Below are positions 1-13,370 of a DNA stretch of 13,370 nucleotides, in pieces. The stretch lies in the IMG/VR virus record IMGVR_UViG_2526164628_000013; one strand, 5' to 3'. Both the position numbers and the translations under genes were made by a program. Within the stretch, counting starts at the first letter, position 1; every line of letters starts with the position of its first letter. The stretch is from a virus (lineage: Duplodnaviria > Heunggongvirae > Uroviricota > Caudoviricetes). The notes under the pieces are model-generated. The model was not told the origin of the DNA. It did no database searches and saw only the letters and a list, made by a program, of their open reading frames with translations.

Positions 1-201
1 ATGCTGAACGATTTAGGCGTGGATCCGCATATTGTCGAACAACTCACCGCTCACCAGATGCCAGGGATGCAGCGAGTCTATAACCACTCCCGTTATCTCG
101 ATGCGAAACGTAATGCGCTGGACATGTGGACAGAGCGGTTAGAGATACTGGCGGGTACTCACAAAAACGTAACCACACTGCCAATAGCCAGAGAAATATA
201 A
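1..201 (+). CDS. int: Tyrosine integrase, C-terminal fragment (gene starts upstream of window)
   Basis: ORF 1..201 ends ...QRVYNHSRYLDAKRNALDMWTERLEIL, the pattern of a tyrosine recombinase C-terminus with the catalytic Tyr; followed by an AlpA-like gene as in P4/CP4-57-type islands. Partial, so family call is inference. Confidence 0.7.
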   Translation: MLNDLGVDPHIVEQLTAHQMPGMQRVYNHSRYLDAKRNALDMWTERLEILAGTHKNVTTLPIAREI

Positions 202-228
202 TTTTTTTTGCGATTTTTTAGAACTGAC

Positions 229-288
229 ACAACGTGAAACAACGAGACACCACGACGAACAACGGCGAACAATCTGGAACAAACTTGA
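229..288. repeat. Six tandem 10-bp A/C-rich repeats (ACAACGTGAA, ACAACGAGAC, ACCACGACGA, ACAACGGCGA, ACAATCTGGA, ACAAACTTGA)
   Basis: Read directly: ACAACG-like hexamer recurs at 229, 239, 249, 259, 269, 279, an exact 10-bp period, in the int-alpA intergenic region. Confidence 0.8.
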
Positions 289-433
289 TTAACATCTGAC
301 TGACACCCTAAAAAGTTGATTTTCAGTCGTTTTACTGGCTTTTTGTACATTGGCGAATCACTCTTAAAAACATGTAAAAAAGGCGTAAAAACAGAATTTT
401 ATGCCTTTGCACCACAATGAATTAAAAGAGTTT

Positions 434-462
434 TTATTCTCATTACCACACTTCTGTAAAAT
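434..462 (+). promoter_or_regulatory. Candidate sigma70-like promoter upstream of alpA (TTATTC -17 bp- TAAAAT)
   Basis: -35-like TTATTC at 434-439 and -10-like TAAAAT at 457-462 with a 17-bp spacer; motif match only. Confidence 0.2.
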
Positions 463-568
463 GACCGCCGCCAGTGTTTGCCATTCCATAAACACCCTGA
501 CACAATCCGACGCACCACAACACAATAGGACACCAAATAACTCTTTAAGAAATATCAAAGGGGGAATT

Positions 569-757
569 GTGTTAAGCACAGATCGCTTTATACGTGAAAA
601 AGAATGTCAGCAACTTACAGGCCTGAGCCGTTCATGTCGGTACCGCCTGGAAAAAACCGGACAATTCCCATCACGGCGTAAGCTCGGCGGTCGTTCCGTT
701 GGCTGGTCTTTATCCGAAGTTCTGGCATGGAAGGAAAGCTGCGAGGCAGTTCACTAA
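569..757 (+). CDS. alpA: AlpA-family phage regulatory protein (winged-helix, Xis-like)
   Basis: C-terminal part of ORF 401..757 reads ...LTGLSRSCRYRLEKTGQFPSRRKLGGRSVGWSLSEVLAWKE, matching the AlpA pattern. GTG at 569 is preceded by SD AAAGGGG (557-564); this gives ~62 aa, typical AlpA size. The longer 401 start is judged an artefactual extension. Confidence 0.75.
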   Translation: MLSTDRFIREKECQQLTGLSRSCRYRLEKTGQFPSRRKLGGRSVGWSLSEVLAWKESCEAVH

Positions 758-809
758 TCAGGCTGGCGGCACACCGCCGCCACCCATCCACTAATACAGA
801 GATCTAACC

Positions 810-2000
810 ATGAATACTGGATATTCTCCCGAACAAGGGCGGGGCTTCGTTCGTCCTGAAAAACAGAATCTGCAAAATTTTGCCGAAATTATTCCGGTTA
901 TTTCCGGCCTTACTGGCGGGAGTGAAACCAATATTGTTAACGCCAGAGCGTTGCAGATGTTTGATGATAAAAAGGGAGTAAATTTAACTTACACCCCTGA
1001 CGGCAATCAGAATATGAGCATTATCTCTGAGTCAGGTTTCTACAAACTAATAAAAACAAAAAGCGCCCCGTTCCCGGAGCGCCTTTGTGAACAATTAACC
1101 TACTGCGCAAAAAATGAATCTGAGCAGTGGGATTATATCAACCGTGTGGCGAAGCGCCACAATTGCCGGATAACAGGCAAAACAAAGGCCACCCGCTACG
1201 GTGGCCCCTCGACACAAGCTACACGTTATCCCCAACGCATGAGCATCACCAACAATGCCACATTTGCGGCTGGTGGGCAATGTGATCAGTCAGATTTGGT
1301 TCGTTCCAAGGTTTGCAACGAGAGCTTTTTCCTGTGCTCTTTAAGGAATTTCTCAAGAGCAAAAGCACATGGCGCGAATCTTTCTGATTCATGCTCTATC
1401 TTTCTGCGCCGTCTTTTCCGTGCCGGTGATAATGTTTTGGTCAATTCTTTATCGGTCATTGTGTTGTCCTGCATAGCAATGCGCCGTAATACCTTACACC
1501 ACGGCGCTGATGGTGATTACTCTGGTTCTTTGGTCTTGCGACGCTGGAGTTCTTCGCGTGCAACGGTGACAAGCTGCCCGATTTCTTCCGCTGCTTTGAT
1601 GCCGATTTGTTCGACCTTAGCCAGGGCATCCAGTGACGACACAAGGGGATTTTCTCCGCTGCCTTCTGCTTGGCGGCGGGCTATTTCTCCGCGCATGGCG
1701 GTTACGATAAATCCGGCATTGCTTTCGCCGTCCAGCTTAACGGATTCCATCCCTTGCATAACATCTAGTGGGACTCTGACAGTTGTCAGTTGTGATTTTG
1801 CGTTTTTGTTAGCCGTTGCCATTTCTGAAACTCCTAATCATCGGTGTGTTTCAGTATACACAAAAAAAGAAATACAAAAAGCCTTGACGTGTGTTTCATG
1901 CGCTCATAACATGAAACACACCAAAAGAATTGTTGAAATACAAAGAGCAACGCCCCGCAGTGCCGGAAACACATACGGGGCGTCTAACCACCAACGATAG
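810..2000 (+). CDS. Hypothetical ORF; only the first ~155 codons (810..~1280) look protein-like, the rest is an open frame antisense to minus-strand genes and an operator region
   Basis: 396-codon open frame. N-terminal part has balanced composition; from ~1280 the translation becomes S/L/R/C-rich, typical of antisense reading, and it overlaps the RHH-like gene (1517..1822) which has a strong SD. Weak SD at 810. Confidence 0.3.
   Translation: MNTGYSPEQGRGFVRPEKQNLQNFAEIIPVISGLTGGSETNIVNARALQMFDDKKGVNLTYTPDGNQNMSIISESGFYKLIKTKSAPFPERLCEQLTYCAKNESEQWDYINRVAKRHNCRITGKTKATRYGGPSTQATRYPQRMSITNNATFAAGGQCDQSDLVRSKVCNESFFLCSLRNFSRAKAHGANLSDSCSIFLRRLFRAGDNVLVNSLSVIVLSCIAMRRNTLHHGADGDYSGSLVLRRWSSSRATVTSCPISSAALMPICSTLARASSDDTRGFSPLPSAWRRAISPRMAVTINPALLSPSSLTDSIPCITSSGTLTVVSCDFAFLLAVAISETPNHRCVSVYTKKEIQKALTCVSCAHNMKHTKRIVEIQRATPRSAGNTYGASNHQR
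1286..1459 (-). CDS. Small basic hypothetical protein (MTDKELTKTLSPARKRRRRKIEHES...)
   Basis: Minus-strand ORF downstream of the RHH-like gene; internal ATG at 1459 has AGGA 7 nt upstream; K/R-rich. Could be spurious. Confidence 0.3.
   Translation of the reverse strand: MTDKELTKTLSPARKRRRRKIEHESERFAPCAFALEKFLKEHRKKLSLQTLERTKSD
1517..1822 (-). CDS. Putative small DNA-binding regulator (possibly ribbon-helix-helix), divergent from the rightward operon
   Basis: 101-aa ORF with protein-like composition; ATG at 1822 preceded on the minus strand by AGGAG with 8-nt spacer; its upstream region carries the palindromic operator at 1889-1921. Fold assignment is inference. Confidence 0.6.
   Translation of the reverse strand: MATANKNAKSQLTTVRVPLDVMQGMESVKLDGESNAGFIVTAMRGEIARRQAEGSGENPLVSSLDALAKVEQIGIKAAEEIGQLVTVAREELQRRKTKEPE
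1884..1921 (+). promoter_or_regulatory. Rightward promoter (TTGACG -17- TAACAT) overlapped by a perfect 12-bp inverted repeat operator
   Basis: TTGACG 1884-1889, TAACAT 1907-1912. GTGTGTTTCATG (1889-1900) and CATGAAACACAC (1910-1921) are exact reverse complements with a 9-bp spacer; a third half-site GTGTGTTTCA lies at 1844-1853. Confidence 0.5.
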
Positions 2001-2019
2001 CAAGATTATCGAGGCTGCT

Positions 2020-2226
2020 ATGAGAAATCATACCATACACCCGCAAGGGCGGGACTCGCACAACCTGAATAAATACATCTGGCGTTTTATCGCCCTGAGT
2101 ACGGCACAACCGCGCGTGATTACCATTGAGGCCACCAGCGAACAGGAAGCCCGTCAGCAATCACCGGCTGGCTGCGTGATGGTATTCGCCGCCCGTATTC
2201 GTCAGGGGGTGCACCATGTGCAATAA
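2020..2226 (+). CDS. Small hypothetical protein, first gene of the rightward operon (weak resemblance to Icd/Ash-like proteins of P4-type islands, unverified)
   Basis: ATG 2020 preceded by GAGG (2011-2014); MRNHTIHPQGRDSHNLNKYIWRFIALSTAQPRVITIEATSEQEARQQSPAGCVMVFAARI... Family call from memory only. Confidence 0.45.
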   Translation: MRNHTIHPQGRDSHNLNKYIWRFIALSTAQPRVITIEATSEQEARQQSPAGCVMVFAARIRQGVHHVQ

Positions 2227-2476
2227 CACCCGTCCGGACGCAGCCGCCGAAGCAATCAAAACACTGATTGATGCGCTGATTGATATTTCTGTTATCGCGG
2301 ACAGGGCGCATAAGCACGCTACCAGTGAAACAGAATATGCCGGGGCTTTCGTTCCTCATTCGCTGGCGGTTATGCAACTTAGTGCGGATATGGCGCTGAA
2401 TGAGGCCAAAGCCATCCTGATTGCTGATTGTGAAAATGGGGGGGGGTTATGCGTGATGATCGTTTTAATTCCCTGA
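2216..2476 (+). CDS. Hypothetical small protein
   Basis: ATG 2216 with AGGGGG SD 6 nt upstream; start overlaps the preceding stop; ends across the G9 tract. Confidence 0.4.
   Translation: MCNNTRPDAAAEAIKTLIDALIDISVIADRAHKHATSETEYAGAFVPHSLAVMQLSADMALNEAKAILIADCENGGGLCVMIVLIP
2438..2446. repeat. G9 homopolymer tract at the junction of two overlapping ORFs
   Basis: Nine consecutive G read directly at 2438-2446; encodes GGG in ORF 2216..2476 and sits 2 nt upstream of ATG 2449. Confidence 0.9.
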
Positions 2477-2682
2477 AACAGGAATTTTCCGGCGTTCCTG
2501 ATGATGCGGCTGATGCGCTTTCGTCAATGCCAGAGCTTATTAGAGCGGCTTTTTTCTTACTTTCCACGAGAGAATATAAATCAACGGGGCTTGATGTACT
2601 GAATATCGCCGCCGATTATGCGGAATATGTGGCAGAGGCGCGTTACAGAAGAAAATTTCCTGAGGATGTAAGCCATGCGTGA
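2449..2682 (+). CDS. Hypothetical small protein
   Basis: ATG 2449 immediately downstream of the G-rich tract (SD-like); overlaps neighbours at both ends. Confidence 0.4.
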   Translation: MRDDRFNSLKQEFSGVPDDAADALSSMPELIRAAFFLLSTREYKSTGLDVLNIAADYAEYVAEARYRRKFPEDVSHA

Positions 2683-2908
2683 TATTTACCACGAAACAAT
2701 AGACCGCGCATTTCTTGCACTTTCTCACAGTGAAAACATGCTGGAAATATTGCGCATATGGCTTGAAACACTTGGCGACAATGAACGCGACAAACAAAAA
2801 TCAAGAATTGCCACGGCATTAATAACGCTTCTTGAGCCTGTAATAATGGAACTGCAAGAAATAGATCTATTGCACGACAGATATAAAGAACAGCACACCG
2901 GAGAATAA
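2675..2908 (+). CDS. Hypothetical small protein (predicted helical)
   Basis: ATG 2675 overlaps the previous stop; GAGGA 8 nt upstream. Confidence 0.4.
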   Translation: MRDIYHETIDRAFLALSHSENMLEILRIWLETLGDNERDKQKSRIATALITLLEPVIMELQEIDLLHDRYKEQHTGE

Positions 2909-2913
2909 AAATA

Positions 2914-3213
2914 ATGAAACTTAAATATTCTGGCTTAACTGCCAGTGGCAACACTCACCCTAAATTTACGCGCGGTGATATTTACCGCGACCAGTACGGC
3001 GGCACGGTAATGATTAAGGGCGTGGAAGAACGGCGCGTAATCTACCGCCGTGAAGGTTACGAATATGATTGCGTGATGCCTGTTTATCAGTTCCGGTGTG
3101 ATTTTTCTCTGGTACAGACCGCGCCGCATAACGTGCCCACCAGCAACGCCAGGGCACGGGCAAACATCCAGAAGCTGAAAACCATGATTAACGGATTCAG
3201 GGGCAAGAAATGA
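2914..3213 (+). CDS. Hypothetical small protein immediately upstream of and overlapping the replication helicase gene
   Basis: ATG 2914; stop overlaps ATG 3210 of the next gene (ATGA-type coupling). Confidence 0.45.
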   Translation: MKLKYSGLTASGNTHPKFTRGDIYRDQYGGTVMIKGVEERRVIYRREGYEYDCVMPVYQFRCDFSLVQTAPHNVPTSNARARANIQKLKTMINGFRGKK

Positions 3214-4625
3214 AAAGCGCACCGAACTTAAAAAAACAGCCTTACGACAAAATGACCGAAGTCATTATTTTTGCGGGTAGTGATGCCTGGGCGCACGCGA
3301 AACAATGGCAGGAGCAGGACGGGCGACTTGCTGGCGACAATGTTCCGCCTGTATGGCTGGGAGACAGCCAGCTTGACGAACTGGCAGGCCTGAAAATTAT
3401 CGACGATGGTCGCTATTGTGTCCGACTGTACAAGGCAGGCCACATCAAGCCGTCAAATATTAATGCCATCGGGCAAAAGCTGGCGGCGGCAGGTGTACGG
3501 GATGCGAATTATTACCCTGAGGGAATGCACAGTCAGAAGCTGGAGAACTGGCACGACTACCTGCAACGGATCCGCGAACAGGCAGAGCGCGGGGAAATAC
3601 TTACTGACGAGCAATACAGCCAGCGAAAAACCACGCTACCAATGAGCATTGGATCTGCAGGGTACGACACACAGCTTGATTATGTCGTTAAGGGCGTGAT
3701 TCCGGCTAATTCATTGTGCAGCACATACGGCGCGAGCGGTTCCTATAAATCGTTCCTCGCGTGTTCCTGGGCGTGTCATGTTGCCACGGGTCGCCACTGG
3801 GGAGGTCGCAGGGTGGCGCATGGTTCGGTGATGTATGTTGTCGGTGAAGGTGGCATTGGTGTCCCCCGCCGTATCAAGGCATGGGAAATCGTTAATGATG
3901 AACGGGTGAAAAATCTGTACCTGGTAAACCGCCCGATTTTTCCTGCAGCCCAGTTTGATGTTGATGAAATGGTTATCGCATCCCGCCAGGTTGAACGGGA
4001 AACGGGTAAACCGGTACGCATGATTATTCTGGATACGCTGGCGCGTTGCTTTGGCGGTAATGATGAAAATGACGCGCGGGATATGGGGGCGTTTATCCGT
4101 GGATGTGACGAACTGAAACGACGCACAGGGGCCACGGTGCTGGTGGTTCACCATTCCGGCAAGGATGAAACAAAAGGGGCGCGTGGTTCCAGTGCATTTC
4201 GTGCATCTCTGGACGCTGAGTACCGGATCCGCCGCGAAGGCGCGGACAGTGAGGCCCTGGTTATCTCCTGCACCAAAATGAAGGACGCGGAGGAACTGAA
4301 AGAGGCTGCATATGATTTACGTGTGGTGGAGCTTTTTACCGACGCTGACAAGGAGTTAATCACGTCGCTGGTGGTTGTGGATAAGCCGCGCCCACCCGTT
4401 GAACTGGAGCGCATCGAGGAGGCCGGAAACAAGACGGAGAATCACGCCGCACTATGGGGCTGTATCCGGTCACGCACACAGCGCGGCGATAAATGCACTA
4501 TCCCGTTGTTGCGCGATGATATGAAAAAGCTGGGGTATGAGATGAAAAACTTCCGGCGCTGGCTGTACAAGCTGGAAAGAGACGGCGTTATCGCTATTGA
4601 CGGTGATGATGTGCGCCCACTGTAA
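3210..4625 (+). CDS. Replication protein: RepA/DnaB-like P-loop helicase (satellite/PICI pri-rep-like) with C-terminal winged-helix-like tail
   Basis: 471 aa. Walker A-like YGASGSYKS, RecA-fold signatures MIILDTLARCFGG and VLVVHHSGKD; basic C-terminal ~60 aa plausibly DNA-binding. Iteron array begins at its stop codon. Confidence 0.75.
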   Translation: MKSAPNLKKQPYDKMTEVIIFAGSDAWAHAKQWQEQDGRLAGDNVPPVWLGDSQLDELAGLKIIDDGRYCVRLYKAGHIKPSNINAIGQKLAAAGVRDANYYPEGMHSQKLENWHDYLQRIREQAERGEILTDEQYSQRKTTLPMSIGSAGYDTQLDYVVKGVIPANSLCSTYGASGSYKSFLACSWACHVATGRHWGGRRVAHGSVMYVVGEGGIGVPRRIKAWEIVNDERVKNLYLVNRPIFPAAQFDVDEMVIASRQVERETGKPVRMIILDTLARCFGGNDENDARDMGAFIRGCDELKRRTGATVLVVHHSGKDETKGARGSSAFRASLDAEYRIRREGADSEALVISCTKMKDAEELKEAAYDLRVVELFTDADKELITSLVVVDKPRPPVELERIEEAGNKTENHAALWGCIRSRTQRGDKCTIPLLRDDMKKLGYEMKNFRRWLYKLERDGVIAIDGDDVRPL

Positions 4626-4826
4626 AAAGTGAGGCGCAAAAGTGAGGGGATAGCAGGAACTGAACAAAAAGCAACCGCGCCCCTCACTTTTCAATCTGTA
4701 TATAGGCTCAAAAGTGAGGAATAAAAAACACATTGAAAAACAACATATTAGAATCACAAAAAAACAAGGTTGGAAATCATGTGGGGAGCTTAAAAAGTGA
4801 GGCGAAAAAGTGGGGAGTAGTGGGGA
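4625..4826. repeat. Iteron array, putative replication origin: AAAAGTGAGG direct repeats plus one inverted copy and an AT-rich stretch
   Basis: AAAAGTGAGG at 4625, 4638, 4710, 4793; variant AAAAGTGGGG at 4806; inverted copy CCTCACTTTT at 4682-4691; AT-rich 4720-4770. Lies directly after the helicase gene. Confidence 0.6.
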
Positions 4827-5078
4827 ATGACCAGAAAAAGCAGAGATAAAACAGCACCAAAATATCGCGCATTAGACATGACAGAGCACGCCTTAAAGGT
4901 GGCAATCAGAACGATAGACCGCCACGCCGGAGAAGGATACGCGAAAGCGCATCCCGAACTGATAAGCGCATTCATGACCACGGCGGCGGCAAATTTTGCC
5001 ACACTGACAGAACGGGAGATTGCCGAAGCGGAACAGGTGACAACCATCAACGTTAAAACCGGAGAGCAGACAGCATGA
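4827..5078 (+). CDS. Hypothetical protein between ori and ssb
   Basis: 83-aa ORF; stop overlaps ATG of the SSB-like gene (ATGA at 5075-5078). Confidence 0.45.
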   Translation: MTRKSRDKTAPKYRALDMTEHALKVAIRTIDRHAGEGYAKAHPELISAFMTTAAANFATLTEREIAEAEQVTTINVKTGEQTA

Positions 5079-5497
5079 CAGCACAGATAGCGGCTTACGG
5101 GCGGCTGGTGGCTGACCCGCAGTTAAAGACCACCAGCAAGGGTACACAAATGACGATGGCGAGTATGGCGGTCCCACTTCCGTGCAGCCAGGCAGATGAC
5201 GGAACGGCGACGATGTGGTTATCCGTCCTGGCGTTTGGCAGACAGGCCGAAGCACTGGCAAAGCACCGCAAGGGTGAACTCCTGAGCGTGGCGGGTAACA
5301 TGCAGGTAAGCCAGTGGACAGGCCAGAACGGCGAAACGCGGCGGGGCTGGCAGGTTATCGCAGACAGCGTAATCAGTGCGCGAACGGCGCGACCGGGCGG
5401 CAAAAAAGGTCAGCAGGGGCAGGCCACTGACGCACTGAACAGGGCAAAACAACAGTCGGGGAATGATGATCCGTACGGCGATAATATACCGTTTTAA
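5075..5497 (+). CDS. ssb: Single-stranded DNA-binding protein-like (OB fold with acidic ...DDPYGDNIPF tail)
   Basis: 140 aa. N-terminal ~100 aa align by eye to E. coli SSB OB-fold segments (GRLVADPQL..., WLSVLAFGRQAEALAKHRKGELLSVAGNMQVSQWTGQNGETR...). C-terminus ends DNIPF, like the SSB DDDIPF tail. Confidence 0.65.
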   Translation: MTAQIAAYGRLVADPQLKTTSKGTQMTMASMAVPLPCSQADDGTATMWLSVLAFGRQAEALAKHRKGELLSVAGNMQVSQWTGQNGETRRGWQVIADSVISARTARPGGKKGQQGQATDALNRAKQQSGNDDPYGDNIPF

Positions 5498-5514
5498 ATT
5501 CTGCAAACAAAAAG

Positions 5515-5543
5515 ATGCCGGAAAAAAATAGATTTTCCGGCAT
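5515..5543. terminator. Perfect 11-bp stem hairpin (ATGCCGGAAAA / TTTTCCGGCAT, 7-nt loop) between replication and capsid modules
   Basis: Read directly. A U-tract follows the stem only on the minus-strand transcript; on the + strand an A-tract precedes it. Orientation ambiguous. Confidence 0.4.
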
Positions 5544-5714
5544 GCTACATAAATCCCGACCAAAGGAAGTAAATACATTAACACGAATTATCAGCACTGA
5601 AGTTGTCACGGCATATTTTATACAACATTGCACTTGGTTGCATGTATTCGCATAGCAGACATCGGTAATAGAATATATTCACAATTATTTGTAATGAATG
5701 TAAAGAGGATGAGT

Positions 5715-6755
5715 ATGGTTGATTTATATTCGCCTACACAGCTTGTGCAGGTGGCTAATGCTGAAGATGTGCAAAAAAAATTAAATGCGTTGTTTACCAG
5801 TTTGTTTTTCACTCGCTCGGTAATGTTTGAATCGAGAGACATTATTCTTGATACGATCGACGATCCAAATATCCCGATCGCGGCGTTTTGCTCTCCTATG
5901 GTGGGCAGTAAAGTTTCACGAGATGAGGGATACGAATCAAAAACAATTCGCCCTGGCTATATGAAACCGAAAAGCAGCATTGATCCAAATAAGTTAGCTG
6001 TGCGCCCTGCTGGTGTATCACCTGAACAATACAATGCTTTTGGGGCGCGTAATATTAAAGTTAAACAGGCGATTGTAAATCAGGCTAAAGCTATACGTGC
6101 ACGTATTGAATGGCTTGCTGTTCAGGCAATCACAACGGGGAAAAATATCATTGAGGGCGATGGTATTGAACGTTATGAACTGGACTGGAATATAAAACCA
6201 CAAAATATTATCACGCAGTCTGGCGGTGCTGAGTGGTCAGGTAAGGATAAAGAAACTTTTGATCCAAATGATGATATTGAGAGCTACGCAGAATTTAGTG
6301 AGGGCGTCACTAATATCATCATTATGGGCGGTAATGTATGGAAGAAATACCGTTCATTCAGAGCGATAAAAGAGGCTCTGGATACCCGCCGTGGTTCTAA
6401 TTCCGAACTGGAAACGGCCCTTAAAGACCTTGGTGATTCGGTGAGTTTTAAAGGGTATATGGGCGATGTTGCGATTGTTGTTTACAGCGGACGTTATACC
6501 GACGAGGACGGAACTGAAAAACATTTCCTTGATCCTGATTTGATGGTGCTTGGCAATACGGCTCTTCAGGGGATTGTCGCCTATGGCGGTATTCAGGATC
6601 CGGAGCTAACCCGAATGGGGCTGACTAAAGCCGAACTTGCACCGAAAAACTATATTGTGCCTGGTGATCCGGCTATTGAGTACGTACAAACGCACTCTGC
6701 ACCACAGCCAATACCGGCCCGCATCAATCGTTTTGTTACCGTTCGCATTGGCTAA
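5715..6755 (+). CDS. Major capsid protein, phage lambda gpE family
   Basis: Internal ATG 5715 with SD AAAGAGG (5702-5708). Long blocks match lambda gpE as recalled (NIITQSGGAEWSGKDKETFDPNDDIESYA..., AIKEALDTRRGSNSELETALKDLG..., YMGDVAIVVYSG..., MVLGNTA). About 346 aa. Confidence 0.85.
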   Translation: MVDLYSPTQLVQVANAEDVQKKLNALFTSLFFTRSVMFESRDIILDTIDDPNIPIAAFCSPMVGSKVSRDEGYESKTIRPGYMKPKSSIDPNKLAVRPAGVSPEQYNAFGARNIKVKQAIVNQAKAIRARIEWLAVQAITTGKNIIEGDGIERYELDWNIKPQNIITQSGGAEWSGKDKETFDPNDDIESYAEFSEGVTNIIIMGGNVWKKYRSFRAIKEALDTRRGSNSELETALKDLGDSVSFKGYMGDVAIVVYSGRYTDEDGTEKHFLDPDLMVLGNTALQGIVAYGGIQDPELTRMGLTKAELAPKNYIVPGDPAIEYVQTHSAPQPIPARINRFVTVRIG

Positions 6756-6764
6756 GGGGGAGCA

Positions 6765-6958
6765 ATGGCTACTCATTACACTGAACTCATGTCTGGCACT
6801 GAAGCACTGGTTACTACGCTGGGGATATTTTCAGCCAATAAAGGGGTAATACCTGCGTTTACGCCACTGATGCAGGAAGATGCAACTGGTGCGCTAGTGG
6901 TATGGGATGGAACGAGCGCAGGCAAAGCGGTTTATGTTTCCGCTGTACAAATCGACAC
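6765..6958 (+). pseudogene. Head decoration protein (lambda gpD-like), 3'-truncated by IS629
   Basis: SD AAGGGGGA then ATG 6765. ...AFTPLMQEDATGALVVWDGTSAGKAVYVSAVQ... resembles the lambda gpD core. Reading frame runs into the IS629 left end at 6959 after ~64 native codons (gpD is ~110 aa). Confidence 0.6.
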
Positions 6959-7012
6959 TGAACCGCCCCGGGAATCCTGGAGACTAAACTCCCTGAGAAA
7001 GAGGTAAACAGG

Positions 7013-7339
7013 ATGACTAAAAATACTCGTTTTTCCCCCGAAGTCCGTCAGAGGGCGATTCGTATGGTTCTGGAAAGTCAGGGCGAATATGACTCACAGT
7101 GGGCGGCAATTTGTTCCATTGCCCCAAAGATTGACTGTACACCGGAGACTCTGCGTGTCTGGGTACGCCAGCATGAGCGGGATACCGGAGGCGGTGATGG
7201 CGGGCTCACCACCGCTGAACGTCAGCGTCTGAAAGAGCTGGAACGTGAAAATCGTGAACTGCGCCGCAGTAACGATATCCTTCGCCAGGCTTCCGCTTAT
7301 TTTGCGAAGGCGGAGTTCGACCGCCTCTGGAAAAAGTGA
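7013..7339 (+). CDS. IS629 OrfA (transposase N-terminal/HTH component)
   Basis: [30 protein letters not shown]...[18 protein letters not shown], 108 aa. Confidence 0.85.
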
Positions 7340-8226
7340 TGCCACTGCTGGATAAGCTGCGTAAGCTGTACGGGGTCGGACCGGTATGCAGTGAACTACA
7401 TATTGCCCCGTCAACGTATTACCACTGTCAGCAACAGCGACATCATCCTGATAAACGCAGTGCCCGTGCGCAGCGCGATGACTGGCTGAAGAAAGAGATA
7501 CTGCGCGTATACGATGGGAATCATCAGGTATACGGTGTGCGTAAAGTCTGGCGTCAGTTGTTACGGGAAGGAATCAGGGTAGCCAGATGTACAGTGGCGC
7601 GCCTCATGGCGGTTATGGGACTTGCCGGTGTTCTCCGGGGTAAAAAGGTCCGCACTACCGTCAGCCGGAAAGCCGTTGCCGCAGGCGACCGCGTAAACCG
7701 TCAGTTTGTGGCAGAACGTCCTGACCAGTTGTGGGTGGCTGATTTTACTTACGTCAGCACATGGCAGGGGGTCGTCTATGTGGCGTTCATCATTGATGTG
7801 TTTGCCGGATACATCGTGGGGTGGCGGGTCTCATCGTCTATGGAAACGACATTCGTGCTGGATGCTCTGGAGCAGGCGTTATGGGCCCGTCGACCGTCCG
7901 GCACAGTCCATCACAGTGATAAAGGTTCTCAGTATGTATCGCTGGCCTACACACAGCGGCTTAAGGAAGCCGGATTACTGGCATCAACAGGAAGTACTGG
8001 TGACTCGTATGACAACGCGATGGCGGAGAGCATCAATGGCCTTTACAAAGCGGAGGTAATACACCGTAAGAGCTGGAAAAACCGGACAGAAGTGGAACTG
8101 GCCACACTCACGTGGGTGGACTGGTATAACAATCGACGATTGCTGGAAAGGCTGGGCCATATCCCACCGGCAGAAGCAGAAAAAGCTTATTATGCTTCCA
8201 TCGGAAACGATGATCTGGCAGCCTGA
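7336..8226 (+). CDS. IS629 OrfB (transposase catalytic component; -1 frame relative to orfA)
   Basis: 296 aa with rve-type integrase core (…[14 protein letters not shown]…[10 protein letters not shown]…[10 protein letters not shown]…); overlaps orfA end, typical of IS3-family frameshift organisation. Confidence 0.85.
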
Positions 8227-8280
8227 GTTCACAGATAAAACACTCTCCAGGAAACCCGGGGCGGTTCACAAAGTGTTTTT

Positions 8281-9831
8281 TCATCGCACACCGCCTTTTT
8301 CCTGATGAAAGCGGCAACGAGCAATCACGGATTGAATTTCAAATTGTGTGGTTTCATGGATTGAAATAAGTGGATTGCGGGCGTTACCAACACTGTCTGA
8401 AATGGAAATCAATTCATCGACTTCTTTAACTACACTCTCCAGCACCGCCTGATGGTCACCATCAGTAAAGGGGCGGAAATACAGGCAACCGTAGCAGCAG
8501 CGTACTTCACTGAATGGGCATTTGCCATCATCTCTGGAGCAACCGCCAATCCCATCATGCAACTCATCACCGATTATGCCGACCACGCGCTGGTCTTGCC
8601 ATTTCGTTGAAGAGGTCAGTTCACCAGTCAACATCATAGCCACCATGTTTTGCCATACCGGATTGATACCCAATGCTTTGGCTCGAATCAGTGCCAGTGC
8701 AGGCGTCGCCAGAATGTAATACTTGGCAACAGTAAGGGAGCTATGTCCCAGAATATGCGCAATTTCCTCGGCGCTGACCCCTTGCATAGCCAGTGAATGC
8801 CCCACGTTGTGGCGCAAGTCGGTCGGGGTAATGGTTGGCAAAGCCGCTTCGCCACGCTTTACGGCTGCCTGATAATCTGGCGGACTGAAACAGAGGAAGG
8901 CCTTGTTAATCGCTCTGGACACATTAAACGGTGCAGAGTTACTAAATTCAAATAGCTTGCCATCAGGTTTTAGTTGCGCTCGCTCGATATAGTGCCTAAT
9001 CAACGCGCCGATTTCAGCTGGAATCGCCAAAAACAGACGTTCAGTCGTTACGTGCCGCTGTTTGGCGTAAGGAAGGAGTAAGCTATATCGTATTAATCCG
9101 GTTTCGGAGTTTCGGGTATCAATACGTAAATCTTTTACCGCCAGCTTGGCCAGTTGTACCGGTCGGGCACCGGTGACATACGTCAGTCCCAGAATTACTG
9201 CATCTCGCATGGTGTTCAGACTGTAGTTTTCGCCATACCGAATCGCCACAGCCATTTCAAACAAGCCTTTACTGATCATGTTTTTTTCGAGGGGATCCAG
9301 AACATGATCAATTTCCTGATAGATTCCCCAGTCATGGGAGTGCGGGCGAGGGATGAATTCGAGGTCTTCATAATCTTCGAGGGTAAAACCAGGGAATGCT
9401 TCGGTACAGAGGATTTTTAGGCCGAAAATGATAAAGTAGAAATATTGAGGTTTAATTTCCTGAGTTTCGAGGTAATCTTTCAACACCGTAAAAGTGAAAG
9501 CAGATTTGCTTATGCAATGATCAGTTGCCAAAGACCACGCATGGAGTACCCCAGGAACCTGAGCTGGACACTTGGCAGATGCATAATGGAAGCAAATATA
9601 TTTGATTAATTGGTTGCTGATTTTATCCTGACGAAAGTGGGCATAGCAGCGGCTTCCTGAATAATCGAATACCCAACTGTCACTTGTTGAGCTGATATAT
9701 TTGTCATCAAAATGATCTGCCGATTTAAGATAAATACTAACTGGTATATTAACCTTTAAAATACTCTCAACAAATACAGGTGTGTAAATGTTGCTGTTCG
9801 ACGCATTTAACTGTTTATTGATTCGACTCAT
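8281..9831 (-). CDS. Large tyrosine recombinase (~516 aa) with extended N-terminal domain and ~135-aa C-terminal extension carrying a Cys cluster
   Basis: Box I-like LGLTYVTGARPVQLAKL, box II-like TDLRHNVGH and LGHSSLTVAKYY (catalytic Tyr). Start at ATG 9831 (GGAG 5 nt upstream); in-frame ATGs also at 9846 and 9855. Stop lies 12 bp from the IS629 right end. Confidence 0.7.
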   Translation of the reverse strand: MSRINKQLNASNSNIYTPVFVESILKVNIPVSIYLKSADHFDDKYISSTSDSWVFDYSGSRCYAHFRQDKISNQLIKYICFHYASAKCPAQVPGVLHAWSLATDHCISKSAFTFTVLKDYLETQEIKPQYFYFIIFGLKILCTEAFPGFTLEDYEDLEFIPRPHSHDWGIYQEIDHVLDPLEKNMISKGLFEMAVAIRYGENYSLNTMRDAVILGLTYVTGARPVQLAKLAVKDLRIDTRNSETGLIRYSLLLPYAKQRHVTTERLFLAIPAEIGALIRHYIERAQLKPDGKLFEFSNSAPFNVSRAINKAFLCFSPPDYQAAVKRGEAALPTITPTDLRHNVGHSLAMQGVSAEEIAHILGHSSLTVAKYYILATPALALIRAKALGINPVWQNMVAMMLTGELTSSTKWQDQRVVGIIGDELHDGIGGCSRDDGKCPFSEVRCCYGCLYFRPFTDGDHQAVLESVVKEVDELISISDSVGNARNPLISIHETTQFEIQSVIARCRFHQEKGGVR

Positions 9832-10237
9832 ATGCACTCCATTCATCGCATACATGGGAAAAGGTTGATTTCAGGGCTTCGTTATCAATCACAATTCGCT
9901 GAAGATTGGCCGTATTAGCCTGCTGAGATAGAAATCTTTTAGCGTAAAGATCAGGCATATGGCTATTGTGACTCCAACCGCCAAGTAGCCGTAATTCATC
10001 CTTGGCTTCATCCATCAATCCAACGATAGAAAAGTCTATGGCTGCCAAGTGTGAGTTGGCCTTAATTTTTTGAAGTTTATCACGATAAATACGTTGAAGT
10101 GTTAAATAAGCCCAAGTATGCCGCGTTATATGAGGCGAGATGCTTTCAATGGCATCATAATATTCATCTTTTTTATATTCAGGATACTGCACACTCATAA
10201 TGTCATCAATACGGGTAAAGATATCATAGACTGCATG

Positions 10238-10242
10238 GTATG
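10238..10242. repeat. IS2 target-site duplication, left copy (GTATG)
   Basis: GTATG immediately left of the IS2 end at 10243; identical to 11573-11577. Confidence 0.8.
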
Positions 10243-10333
10243 TAGACTGGCCCCCTGAATCTCCAGACAACCAATATCACTTAAATAAGTGATAGTCTTA
10301 ATACTAGTTTTTAGACTAGTCATTGGAGAGCAG

Positions 10334-10663
10334 ATGATTGATGTCTTAGGACCGGAGAAACGCAGACGGCGTACTACACAGGAAAAGATCGCTATTGTTC
10401 AGCAGAGTTTTGAACCGGGAATGACGGTCTCCCTTGTTGCCCGGCAACACGGTGTGGCAGCCAGCCAGTTATTTCTCTGGCGCAAGCAATACCAGGAGGG
10501 AAGTCTTACTGCTGTGGCCGCAGGAGAGCAGGTCGTTCCTGCCTCTGAACTTGCTGCTGCCATGAAGCAGATTAAAGAACTCCAGCGCCTGCTCGGCAAA
10601 AAACGATGGAAAATGAACTCCTTAAAGAAGCCGTTGAATACGGGCGTGCAAAAAAGTGGATAG
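10334..10663 (+). CDS. insC: IS2 OrfA (InsC), apparently frameshifted in this copy
   Basis: [18 protein letters not shown]...LQRLLGKK matches InsC, then the frame diverges (…[19 protein letters not shown]) while the expected InsC C-terminus [31 protein letters not shown] is encoded in the +1 frame from 10603. A-run at 10598-10603 is 6 A. Confidence 0.75.
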
Positions 10664-11561
10664 CGCACGCGCCCTTATTGCCCGGGGATGGGGAGTAAGC
10701 TTAGTCAGCCGTTGTCTCCGGGTGTCGCGTGCGCAGTTGCACGTAATTCTCAGACGAACCGATGACTGGAAAGATGGTCGCCGCAGCCGTCACTCAGATG
10801 ATACGGATGTGCTTCTCCGTATACACCATGTTATCGGAGAGCTGCCCACGTATGGTTATCGTCGGGTATGGGCGCTGCTTCGCAGACAGGCCGAACTTGA
10901 TGGTATGCCTGCGATCAATGCCAAACGTGTTTACCGGATCATGCGCCAGAATGCGCTGTTGCTTGAGCGAAAAACCGCTGTACCGCCATCGAAACGGGCA
11001 CATACTGGCAAAGTGGCCGTGAAAGAAAGCAATCAACGATGGTGCTCTGACGGGTTCGAGTTCCGCTGTGATAACGGAGAAAAACTGCGAGTCACGTTCG
11101 CGCTGGACTGCTGTGACCGTGAGGCACTGCACTGGGCAGTCACTACGGGCGGCTTCGACAGTGAAACAGTACAGGACGTAATGCTGGGAGCGGTGGAACG
11201 CCGCTTCGGCAACGAGCTTCCGGCGTCTCCAGTAGAGTGGCTGACGGATAATGGTTCATGCTACCGGGCTAATGAAACACGGCAGTTTGCCCGGATGTTG
11301 GGGCTTGAACCGAAGAACACGGCGGTGCGGAGTCCGGAGAGTAACGGCATAGCAGAGAGCTTCGTGAAAACGATAAAGCGTGACTACATCAGTATCATGC
11401 CTAAACCAGACGGGTTAACGGCAGCAAAGAACCTTGCAGAGGCGTTCGAGCATTATAACGAATGGCATCCGCATAGTGCACTGGGTTATCGCTCGCCACG
11501 GGAATATCTGCGGCAGCAGGCCAGTAATGGGTTAAGTGATAACAGGTGTCTGGAAATATAG
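10656..11561 (+). CDS. insD: IS2 OrfB (InsD transposase catalytic component)
   Basis: 301 aa, [34 protein letters not shown]... matches InsD as recalled; GTG start just after the A6G slippery motif (10650-10656). Confidence 0.85.
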
Positions 11562-11572
11562 GGGCAAATCCA

Positions 11573-11577
11573 GTATG
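11573..11577. repeat. IS2 target-site duplication, right copy (GTATG)
   Basis: GTATG immediately right of the IS2 end at 11572. Confidence 0.8.
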
Positions 11578-12727
11578 ACAGTGGCGGATGTAGTCTTTGG
11601 GTGGAAGTGAACAGAAAACTATGGGAGGCTTGAGGGCGGATTTTATGGATATATATATTTAGAAAATGAAAGTCCAGTTTATCTAATGCCAGCACCCGGT
11701 TTGCATAAACATTTTTTAATGAAGGCAATCTTTTTCGTTGATCCGAAACGTCGTCATCTACTGTGGTCACAATCAGGCTGAACTGATCCCCTCGGAGATT
11801 TGGTTTGATCGAATGACACTCCAAAAGCAGTAATTCACTGACACGCAATCCGTAATTTAAAAGCAATCTGCAAATCAGAAAATTACGTAGCTGGATTTCA
11901 CCAGCGGGGAAGGGATTGAGTGGGTTTTTCTTTGAAATTGAACCGGGTGTAATGATTTGGTAAAAAGCCATGACCATCTCAGCAGTCAGACTTCGAAAGC
12001 GTTTATGGGTCGTGCCATTGTTCATCTGACGAGAATGGGTAAGAGTACGGAATTCTGCCTTATGTATCGATAAACGTCCCGTTAACTGCGTGGCAAGTCG
12101 TGTAAGCTCTTTAGGCGTGCCATCTATATATCTCGGCGAGATATACGTGTTAATCAAATATCTGATAAAACGAATAACCGAATGTACATGCCTGATATTT
12201 GTACAACGTTGAGGCGTGGTCTGCGTAGTAGACCTTATGGTTAACGCTGGTACATATAAATGCGTATTTTCCAGATAATGAAAAAAGGCTGTAAGTTCAT
12301 CAATGGCAATCTAAGATATATTAACGGATATAAAAGCGGCTGGCGCGTGTGAGTATCCATCAGTGCCCATAAACGCTGCCGTTGGTTGATATTGAGTTGT
12401 GTAAGTATGAACACGCGGCACTTAACCTTATCAATGGTGTGGATATGAACAAAGTAACCGACAAACATAACGTCCTGCAAGAAGAAGATAGAGGGGTAGG
12501 TAAGTGTATGATTAATCGTATCCTGTGGCCGGTTATGAACTAAATGACCGACGGACTAAATTTAACATAATATACATTATGCGCACCAATGGTAAGGATG
12601 GCAGAATCTGGCGGGAATCGTTGACACTGGCCGTCAACTGGCTACTATCGACAGTGATTCAAAATCATCCGTTTCTCCAAACGAATCAGAATCAAATGTC
12701 TGTCAGCAGTAAGTGAACGGCCTGACC

Positions 12728-12976
12728 TCACCAATCAGGCCTGTTCATCCAGTTAGTTGGTAAATCTGTACCTGATACACGAGAATCAAACACCACTTCT
12801 TCAGTGCCATCACCATGATGCCGGATAATCTGGTAACCGGATTGCGGGTTCTGGCTCTCAGCTTCATAAGCAGCCCGGAATGCTGGATCTTTGAGAAGCA
12901 TCACTTTCAGCTCCTGATGTGTCATGAATTTTTCCATGATAAGCCCCGATGAATGCTGCCGCGCCGAATCAGCCAT
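12728..12976 (-). CDS. Hypothetical small acidic protein (possible start at ATG 12937: MEKFMTHQELKVMLLKDPAFRAAYEAE...)
   Basis: 82-aa ORF; internal ATG at 12937 has a GGGG SD-like element ~10 nt upstream. No recognisable HTH after the N-terminal helix. Confidence 0.35.
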   Translation of the reverse strand: MADSARQHSSGLIMEKFMTHQELKVMLLKDPAFRAAYEAESQNPQSGYQIIRHHGDGTEEVVFDSRVSGTDLPTNWMNRPDW

Positions 12977-13098
12977 AACGCTGAAAATGGAAACAGTACG
13001 GCTTGGCCAACCCCGGACAGCAACAAAACAAGTTTTGTCACTGACCGGCGTTATCTTTCAAAACAGACAGTTAACGATTTTTTGTCTGGTGTTTATGC

Positions 13099-13125
13099 GT
13101 GAAATTTCGTGCGTACGAAATTCAC
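13099..13125. repeat. Imperfect inverted repeat GTGAAATTTCGT-GCG-(T)ACGAAATTCAC overlapping the stop codon of ORF 13122..13370
   Basis: Read directly; arms match 11 of 12 positions; central CGTACG is itself palindromic. No flanking T-tract on either strand. Confidence 0.5.
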
Positions 13126-13370
13126 CACCAATAAACAAACGGACGATGACTGACCGGAAAAGCAATGCCGTCAGCATCATGACCACGCATTACCTGATTG
13201 AGAAGCCTTCTGACTTCACGACGCTCAGGCCTGGTCATCATCATATTGCGATACCAGGACGGCGATTTATCAAACCATCTGGCACAACTGGCAAAATGTG
13301 AACCTACACGACGATAAGACTTAAGGCGGCCACCGGGAAGTCGGTCACGCGCCTTATTTTTTACAGACAT
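13122..13370 (-). CDS. Hypothetical small basic protein (ATG coincides with the window edge; may extend beyond)
   Basis: 82-aa ORF, Arg/Lys-rich (MSVKNKARDRLPGGRLKSYRRVGSHFASCARWF...); family not recognised. Confidence 0.35.
   Translation of the reverse strand: MSVKNKARDRLPGGRLKSYRRVGSHFASCARWFDKSPSWYRNMMMTRPERREVRRLLNQVMRGHDADGIAFPVSHRPFVYWW

Follow-up and report, generated by a model that had tools for sequence, protein, structure and literature searches.

A broken tyrosine recombinase pair beside dif is probably the front of a four-gene, GInt-like integrative island

The recombinase pair at the locus

The stretch analysed here, called the window below, is the whole 13,370-nucleotide virus record IMGVR_UViG_2526164628_000013 (Caudoviricetes). 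Its minus strand carries two tyrosine recombinase genes beside a chromosomal dif site, and it is likely that this pair is the broken front of a four-gene integrative island, resembling the GInt elements, which targets the outer edge of dif. The genes are numbered in operon order, gene 1 being ginA-like, gene 2 ginB-like, gene 3 ginC-like and gene 4 the occupant of the ginD position. The features of the locus are listed below in window coordinates; L001 is an intact relative.

12560-12587, minus strand: chromosomal dif, GGTGCGCATAA-TGTATA-TTATGTTAAAT, an exact 28-bp match
12415-12559, minus strand: island left end, with 20 nt past the XerD arm, then TTCATAA (12539-12533) and the leader to the start of gene 1
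12312-12414, minus strand: gene 1 pseudogene, 5′ fragment of 34 codons with GTG start at 12414, matching L001 17833-17935
11573-12311, minus strand: gene 1 pseudogene, middle fragment with box I Arg236, 100% identical to L001 16958-17696
10243-11572, plus strand: IS2 within gene 1, terminal repeats located; its flanks join seamlessly in intact copies
9815-10242, minus strand: gene 1 pseudogene, 3′ fragment with H362-x-x-R365, W414, Y424 and stop TAA at 9817-9815
8281-9831, minus strand: gene 2, tyrosine recombinase of 516 amino acids (aa), intact, identical to WP_000086929.1
8269-8284, minus strand: first 16 nt of gene 3 (MKKHF), its ATG overlapping the gene 2 stop (ATGA), truncated by the next element
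6959-8268, plus strand: IS3-family element of 1310 bp with orfA and orfB, homology breakpoints at 6958 and 8269, which we take to be of the IS629 type from its terminal repeat and OrfA sequence

A preliminary description of the window, made from its letters alone, had reported the two genes lying head to tail and an overlap in which the second gene has its own GGAG, and these points stand. Gene 2 is clearly matched by Pfam PF00589 (E=2.5e-10) and gene 1 below the cut-off (E=1e-4); the gene 1 stop lies within gene 2, whose ATG is at 9831-9829, giving an overlap of 17 nt with the GGAG 5-8 nt upstream of that ATG. The size of 516 aa given for the second protein is likewise correct (the start at 9831 is that of RefSeq; an alternative ATG at 9855 would give 524 aa). 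The size of about 335 aa given for the first corresponds to no intact gene. It results from reading from the first in-frame TTG (12157), past a frameshift, with IS2 spliced out; the window itself has two open reading frame fragments of gene 1, at 11486-12157 and 9815-10270, with IS2 between them. The intact form has 466 aa, so the ‘small-then-large’ pair that had been suggested is not what is found: the first protein is not small, and its gene is a pseudogene in the window. Translational coupling, also suggested, is plausible in intact copies and moot here. The dif site, and insertion at it, had been overlooked.

An intact four-gene operon in related genomes

The preliminary description had proposed looking for uninterrupted copies in other genomes, and these were found. 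The intact operon is present in E. coli strains 2014EL-1346-6, 97.3, MLI110 and P50, where it encodes proteins of 466, 516, 788 and 144 aa in genes that overlap by 17, 4 and 1 nt; the 788- and 144-aa products are annotated ‘hypothetical’. In L001, gene 1 occupies 16535-17935, gene 2 15001-16551 and gene 3 12638-15004. A scan of one genome per species gave 52 loci with relatives of gene 2, in Escherichia, Enterobacter, Klebsiella, Pectobacterium, Acinetobacter, Psychrobacter and Moraxella, and in Vibrio, Photobacterium, Shewanella, Aeromonas, Kangiella and Marinobacter. Genes 1 to 4 are colinear and co-oriented in ∼45 of the 52. Thus, the pair is part of a conserved quartet rather than two chance neighbours. 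The similarity between related islands stops exactly at the gene 4 stop, and variable cargo begins there. Among 5,426 complete E. coli genomes, gene 2 is present in 152 and the junction of dif with the island left end in 159.

Conserved residues were called from family alignments of 30-40 homologues. Gene 1 retains the catalytic-type residues R236, K279, H362, R365, W414 and Y424. In gene 2 the conserved residues are R223, K257, R340, H363 and Y372, with Thr or Ser at the first His of H-x-x-R; the earlier claim of a box I Arg and an H-x-x-R...Y motif in both proteins therefore holds in full for gene 1, and for the Arg and Tyr but not the first His of gene 2. Gene 3 conserves R250, K294, H506, R509 and Y541, and its PF00589 match is sub-threshold (0.018), a weak match that recurs in 11 of 20 homologues. 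The C-terminal extension of gene 2 (∼140 aa) contains four invariant cysteines (C431, C438, C446 and C449), as does the C-terminal region of gene 3 (C662, C671, C677 and C683), and both Cys4 clusters are probably zinc-binding. For gene 4, weak coiled-coil-type Pfam matches were obtained and nothing stronger.

Structural and profile comparisons point the same way. The AlphaFold model of gene 2 (mean pLDDT 72, the C-terminal extension being modelled with low confidence) gave matches to Cre, XerA, XerH, Tn1549 Int and IntI at probability 1.0, and the gene 1 profile matches XerA (5hxy) at 2e-6. By conserved residues and predicted fold, both genes of the window pair are thus assigned to the tyrosine recombinase superfamily. 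The gene 2 extension matches NCBIfam NF041502 ‘integrase_1’ with E=1e-27, a partial match; the other NCBIfam results were weak Xer-type matches and a gamma-mobile-trio (GmtY) match at 0.003, which was set aside as too weak.

As a reference GInt we used that of O157 Sakai (ECs_3512 to ECs_3509), taken from the published ginC-ginD catalogue. Gene 1 matched Sakai GinA (BLASTP 2e-16; hhalign 99.5%, E=1e-22), gene 2 matched GinB (BLASTP 1e-4; hhalign 94.4%, E=9e-8) and gene 3 matched GinC (BLASTP 6e-8; hhalign 98.4%, E=4e-15), and none of the cross-pairs in this comparison was significant.

Insertion at the XerD arm of dif

The dif site, at which chromosome dimers are resolved, is a 28-bp sequence, essential, present once per chromosome and nearly invariant across bacteria. 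In the window its XerD arm faces the island and lies ∼145 bp upstream of the gene 1 GTG; homology to intact islands extends to 12590. The same dif adjoins hipA in K-12 and in island-bearing strains, and the window dif would act as the attL of the island. Thirty-nine loci had sufficient upstream DNA for a survey, and a complete dif-like 28-mer lies 83-400 bp upstream of gene 1 in 35 of them, its orientation never varying. In all lineages aligned, a TTCATRA motif follows the XerD arm at a distance of 19-21 nt, mostly 20.

The ends of the element and its target site, which the preliminary description had left to be defined, could be placed by comparing empty and filled E. coli sites. P50 (NZ_CM195733) carries a clean 14.7-kb element between yneL and hipA, for which K-12 provides the empty site; both flanks of the P50 element contain 10 nt of the XerD arm (K-12 bases 10751-10760). 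The three junctions, with the bar marking the boundary, read as follows.

attB (K-12): TGTATA-TTATGTTAAAT|CATGTCTGAG
attL (P50): TGTATA-TTATGTTAAAT|TTAGTCCGCC...TTCATAA
attR (P50): TTATGAAC...CACACAAC-ATAAGTTAAAT|CATGTCTGAG

Comparison of the empty and filled sites shows that dif is regenerated after insertion. At each end the direct repeat covers 7-11 nt of the XerD arm, with the outer GTTAAAT repeated. The right end ATAAGTTAAAT was found in five cases: in the E. coli strains P50 and MLI110, in E. whittamii and at two Acinetobacter loci. An inverted TTCATRA lies 17 nt inward of it, and in MLI110 it forms the outer edge of a 38-kb composite island. The far ends are AT-rich. The point to note is the asymmetry of the two ends. 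At attL the arm is perfect, and at attR there is an arm-like 11-mer whose inner 5 nt are unlike dif, with neither XerC arm nor central region. The crossover is therefore placed in or at GTTAAAT and not in the Xer central region. A crossover in the outer arm in turn argues against catalysis by XerCD and would favour the element's own recombinases.

Several other boundaries were considered and discarded. An initial reading, in which the insertion was beside rather than into dif, was dropped after the far boundary was located further out. The right end could not be taken from O6:H16 2014EL-1346-6, 97.3, TW10590 or MLI110 as first tried, these loci being rearranged or ridden with insertion sequences, and a candidate at 6242-6269 of L042 (Aeromonas) was attributed to chance, as it falls within a conserved open reading frame of the reverse strand. 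No arm-like repeat was seen at the point where L038 and L052 diverge, and no further complete dif-like site was found within the E. coli loci, even with as many as 9 mismatches permitted.

Traces of more than one arrival were also seen. In MLI110 there is, on the distal side of the cargo, a ∼110-bp relic (L007 8480-8590) that shares ∼85% identity with the start of the ginA-like gene (its 5′ end) and suggests an older, eroded tandem element. Acinetobacter NIPH 2699 has two tandem copies. Both observations fit the stacking of successive arrivals at dif.

Proposed mechanism and alternative explanations

Gene content, synteny, dif adjacency, terminal repeats and the empty and filled sites are direct observations, and the most probable account of them is an island with its own dif-targeting machinery. 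In the mechanism that we propose, the element would circularise, and its joined ends would form an attP containing the XerD-arm mimic ATAAGTTAAAT with an inverted TTCATRA on each side, 17-20 nt away. Strand exchange by the element's own recombinases would then take place in or at GTTAAAT, the outer 7 bp of the XerD arm in the host's dif; a perfect dif would result beside ginA (attL), and the far end (attR) would be left with an orphan repeat resembling the arm. Newcomers would insert at the same dif and displace older copies outward, where they would decay. The catalysing proteins, the circular intermediate and the exact cleavage positions are predictions from sequence comparison. In the window copy, the ginA-like gene is frameshifted and disrupted by IS2, and ginC, ginD, the cargo and the right end were removed through the IS629-type element.

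An elaboration of this proposal is that the islands form an undescribed class, in which three recombinases target dif independently of Xer by means of their own enzymes, from Enterobacterales to Acinetobacter, Vibrio, Aeromonas and Shewanella, regenerating dif, stacking in tandem and ferrying defence systems. We put this forward tentatively, at slightly less than even chances.

The preliminary description had likened the pair to Tn554 or to recombinase-in-trio (RIT) elements rather than to a phage integrase. Such a module would transpose site-specifically and would consist either of a small and a large recombinase plus a third, small protein or of a trio of recombinases bounded by inverted repeats. 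Part of this stands: the pair is not one of phage integrases, and it does belong with the multi-recombinase elements, among which published comparisons class GInt, SE, RIT and Tn554 as related. Features published as shared with Tn554 are an ordinary and a large recombinase, target specificity and imperfect terminal inverted repeats, with GinD being TnpC-like, and the inverted TTCATRA motifs near both ends here are in keeping with this. The nearest match is nevertheless the four-gene GInt architecture, since there are four genes and not three, the 788-aa recombinase-like third protein is absent from Tn554, and the gene order and the one-to-one profile matches are those of GinA, GinB and GinC. 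The hosts are Gammaproteobacteria, not Staphylococcus or Enterococcus, and the NCBIfam search gave only the matches described above. A Tn554- or RIT-type module is therefore unlikely. Slightly less likely again is a mobile element that integrates by exploiting Xer (IMEX), in which host XerC and XerD would integrate the island while its own recombinases are otherwise employed, or a hybrid in which an element recombinase acts with host XerD. The island is indeed at dif, with a classic IMEX, the filamentous prophage in the window, at the same site; the plasmid copy described below adjoins a plasmid Xer site, and there is precedent for an element recombinase acting with host XerD at a hybrid dif-like site (PMC11014353). 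However, an exchange at the central region would put the perfect arm at attR and the element's arm at attL, and the reverse is observed: the perfect arm is that of attL, and in five cases attR has ATAAG-TTAAAT, without XerC arm or central region. In addition, as many as three recombinases, their active-site residues conserved, are encoded by the elements themselves.

It might also be supposed that these are unrelated phage-type integrases adjacent by chance, or a domesticated, alternative dimer-resolution system beside its own site. RefSeq labels both genes of the pair (gene 2 as WP_000086929.1) ‘site-specific integrase’, and their best weak family matches are Xer-type. The xerS and xerH genes adjoin their dif sites and are a precedent for a recombinase gene in this position. 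Such explanations already conflict with the empty and filled sites and with the four-gene synteny across families. The variable cargo, the direct repeats at both ends, the plasmid copy and the presence/absence polymorphism in E. coli (152 of 5,426 genomes) also speak against them, as does the retention by the hosts of a normal dif and presumably of XerCD, and we regard them as highly improbable.

Some results weigh against a GInt-like island that targets dif with its own enzymes. Gene 2 conserves no first His of the catalytic set in these alignments. The recombinase fold predicted for gene 3 draws on its motifs, the weak Pfam match in 11 of 20 homologues and the link to GinC, and PDB sequence searches with the gene 1 protein alone and with the gene 3 profile gave nothing useful. 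A nearby dif is missing in four of the 39 loci surveyed, and right ends were identified in about six cases. In the Enterobacter element the right end is a perfect arm followed by a homologue of the E. coli dif flank, so that this attR does not discriminate between crossover points. Gene 4 had no BLASTP match to Sakai GinD and no significant hhalign score, and the homology test was made with a single catalogued E. coli GInt, that of Sakai. ECONIH4, which carries this element, appears among the catalogue entries covered with only a different GInt and has no entry among those covered of the SE (tfp-srap) list; the lineage is therefore described as distantly GInt-like rather than as a proven GInt member. 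Finally, the evidence throughout is from sequence, with neither a circular junction nor an excision scar observed.

State of the window copy and its neighbourhood

For the window itself the message is a modest one: its recombinase pair is what remains of a dead copy. With gene 1 a pseudogene and gene 3 severed after 16 nt by the IS629-type element, this copy has also lost gene 4, the cargo and the right end. The earlier suggestion that a third gene had been lost at the IS629 junction is borne out by this remnant (8284-8269). The frameshift in gene 1 is due to a 136-bp deletion at 12311/12312, the absent stretch being L001 17697-17832. The same deletion is found in enterotoxigenic E. coli (ETEC) TW10590, whose annotation gives the gene as a truncated integrase of 291 aa. 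IS2, flanked by a 5-bp target duplication (CATAC, at 10238-10242 and 11573-11577), was seen only in the window, and the deletion is the older of the two lesions.

The IS629-type element joins the island stump to an unrelated module. Positions 1-6958 resemble a capsid-forming satellite akin to the phage-inducible chromosomal islands, with AlpA, DUF4222, a RepA-type AAA_25 helicase, a protein binding single-stranded DNA (SSB) and a lambda-type major capsid protein E; an open reading frame resembling head decoration protein D is interrupted by the IS629-type element. The whole window was found in none of the 5,426 complete E. coli genomes, and in TW10590 this satellite-like module sits ∼200 kb from the recombinase pair. 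The window is therefore read as a rearrangement junction mediated by IS629.

On the other side of this dif, its XerC side, positions 12588-13370 (and 1-10309 of L004) are the end of an integrated filamentous prophage, with genes for Zot, a pIV-like secretin and a II/X replication protein; TW10590 has a tandem pair. The prophage is the XerC-side neighbour in the window and in ETEC TW10590, and in other strains this neighbour is hipA, as in K-12. One dif is thus shared, from opposite sides, by a classic IMEX (the prophage) and the recombinase island.

Other arrangements around dif were noted among the relatives. The IncFII plasmid pLD39-1-134kb (L060) has a full island copy adjoining a plasmid Xer site (23081-23108), in which the XerD arm is identical and the central region (GATAGA) and XerC arm differ; this could reflect either insertion at a plasmid dimer-resolution site or capture through Xer-site recombination. 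E. coli 97.3 has a 3.2-kb insert (L002 18109-21302), encoding a protein with a TolA C-terminal domain and hypothetical proteins, bounded by a degenerate dif-like site (ATTTAACAT-GTTCAACAC-ATTATGCGCACC) and a perfect dif, which looks like another small IMEX. Five Vibrio/Photobacterium loci contain the inverted XerD-arm-like 11-mers TTATGGTAAAT and TTATGTTCAAT. In L020, L034, L046 and L049 these are placed between dif and gene 1, 70-200 bp past dif, and in L051 they follow gene 4 (14706-14747). They may be the end of a neighbouring or earlier element.

Cargo and significance

In E. coli the cargo of MLI110 includes a set of the cyclic-oligonucleotide-based antiphage signalling (CBASS) type (nucleotidyltransferase, E1-like, JAB and HNH proteins) together with a restriction enzyme, and that of P50 is a type I restriction-modification system. 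That GInts occur in E. coli and carry defence systems is already known. On the published map of E. coli defence islands, hipA-ydeT is hotspot #20, an interval that 62 of 783 genomes have occupied, and that paper makes no mention of dif. Neither the GInt paper with its supplement (PMC5385486) nor the SE paper (PMC10214605) mentions dif, and literature searches, which mostly did not extend to subscription journals, found no link of GInt, Tn6571 or ‘three integrases’ to dif. The targeting of dif by GInt-like elements thus appears to be unreported in the literature searched.

Being single-copy and nearly invariant, dif is an ideal safe harbour for mobile elements, and to our knowledge the exploiters so far described are elements that borrow XerCD and a few insertion sequences. 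If the proposal is correct, the GInt, SE and Tn554 group would gain a new targeting logic. The proposal would also account for the defence-island hotspot at hipA-ydeT beside dif in E. coli, and offer a broad-host, single-copy integration system with a target in almost every bacterium. It would further raise the questions of interference with XerD and FtsK at dif and of competition with filamentous phages for the same site.

Comparison with known elements

The closest resemblance is to the GInt (Tn6571-family) elements, which have a ginABCD operon, cargo and a short far end, and require all four genes for excision and integration (PMC5385486). The islands described here share this tripartite structure: an operon at one end with two RHRY-type recombinases, a divergent third and a small fourth protein, cargo directly after gene 4, and an AT-rich far end. 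The operon is that of the intact relatives, gene 2 alone being intact in the window. Insertion is likewise site-specific, between short imperfect direct repeats (10-17 nt in GInts, 7-11 nt here), and defence systems are carried as cargo in E. coli. The differences are also clear. In the partial BLASTP alignments identity is very low, at 22-28%, no resemblance to GinD was detected in the fourth protein, and the third keeps its Arg, His-x-x-Arg and Tyr, whereas in Pseudomonas GinC the first Arg is reportedly absent. The GInt targets are an ABC-transporter gene, ssb and a ribonucleotide-reductase gene; here the target is the XerD arm of dif.

The SE elements likewise have four core genes, with two catalytic recombinases, a recombinase-fold protein and a small coiled-coil protein, and share with these islands gammaproteobacterial hosts, imperfect terminal inverted repeats and target specificity. 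Their gene order, intA-tfp-intB-srap (recombinase, recombinase-fold protein, recombinase, small protein; PMC10214605), differs from that found here in having the recombinase-fold protein second rather than third. Tn554 resembles the islands in its high target specificity and in having no DDE or HUH enzyme, but by gene content it has three genes (tnpA, tnpB and tnpC) where there are four here, with a conserved 788-aa gene between the large recombinase and the small protein; it also has Firmicute hosts and another target.

With IMEX (CTXphi, VGJphi, TLCphi and the gonococcal island) the likeness lies in integration at dif, regeneration of a functional dif and tandem accumulation. IMEX have no recombinase of their own and use XerCD exchange at the central region, whereas the present islands encode their own recombinases and would cross over in the outer arm. 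The nearest precedent for use of the XerD half-site is the XerC-like recombinase of Tn6022, which acts with host XerD at a hybrid dif-like site (PMC11014353). In both cases a tyrosine recombinase of a mobile element exploits a perfect XerD half-site, through a single XerC paralogue acting on an element-borne site in Tn6022, and through what is probably a four-gene cassette acting at the chromosomal dif in the islands described here.

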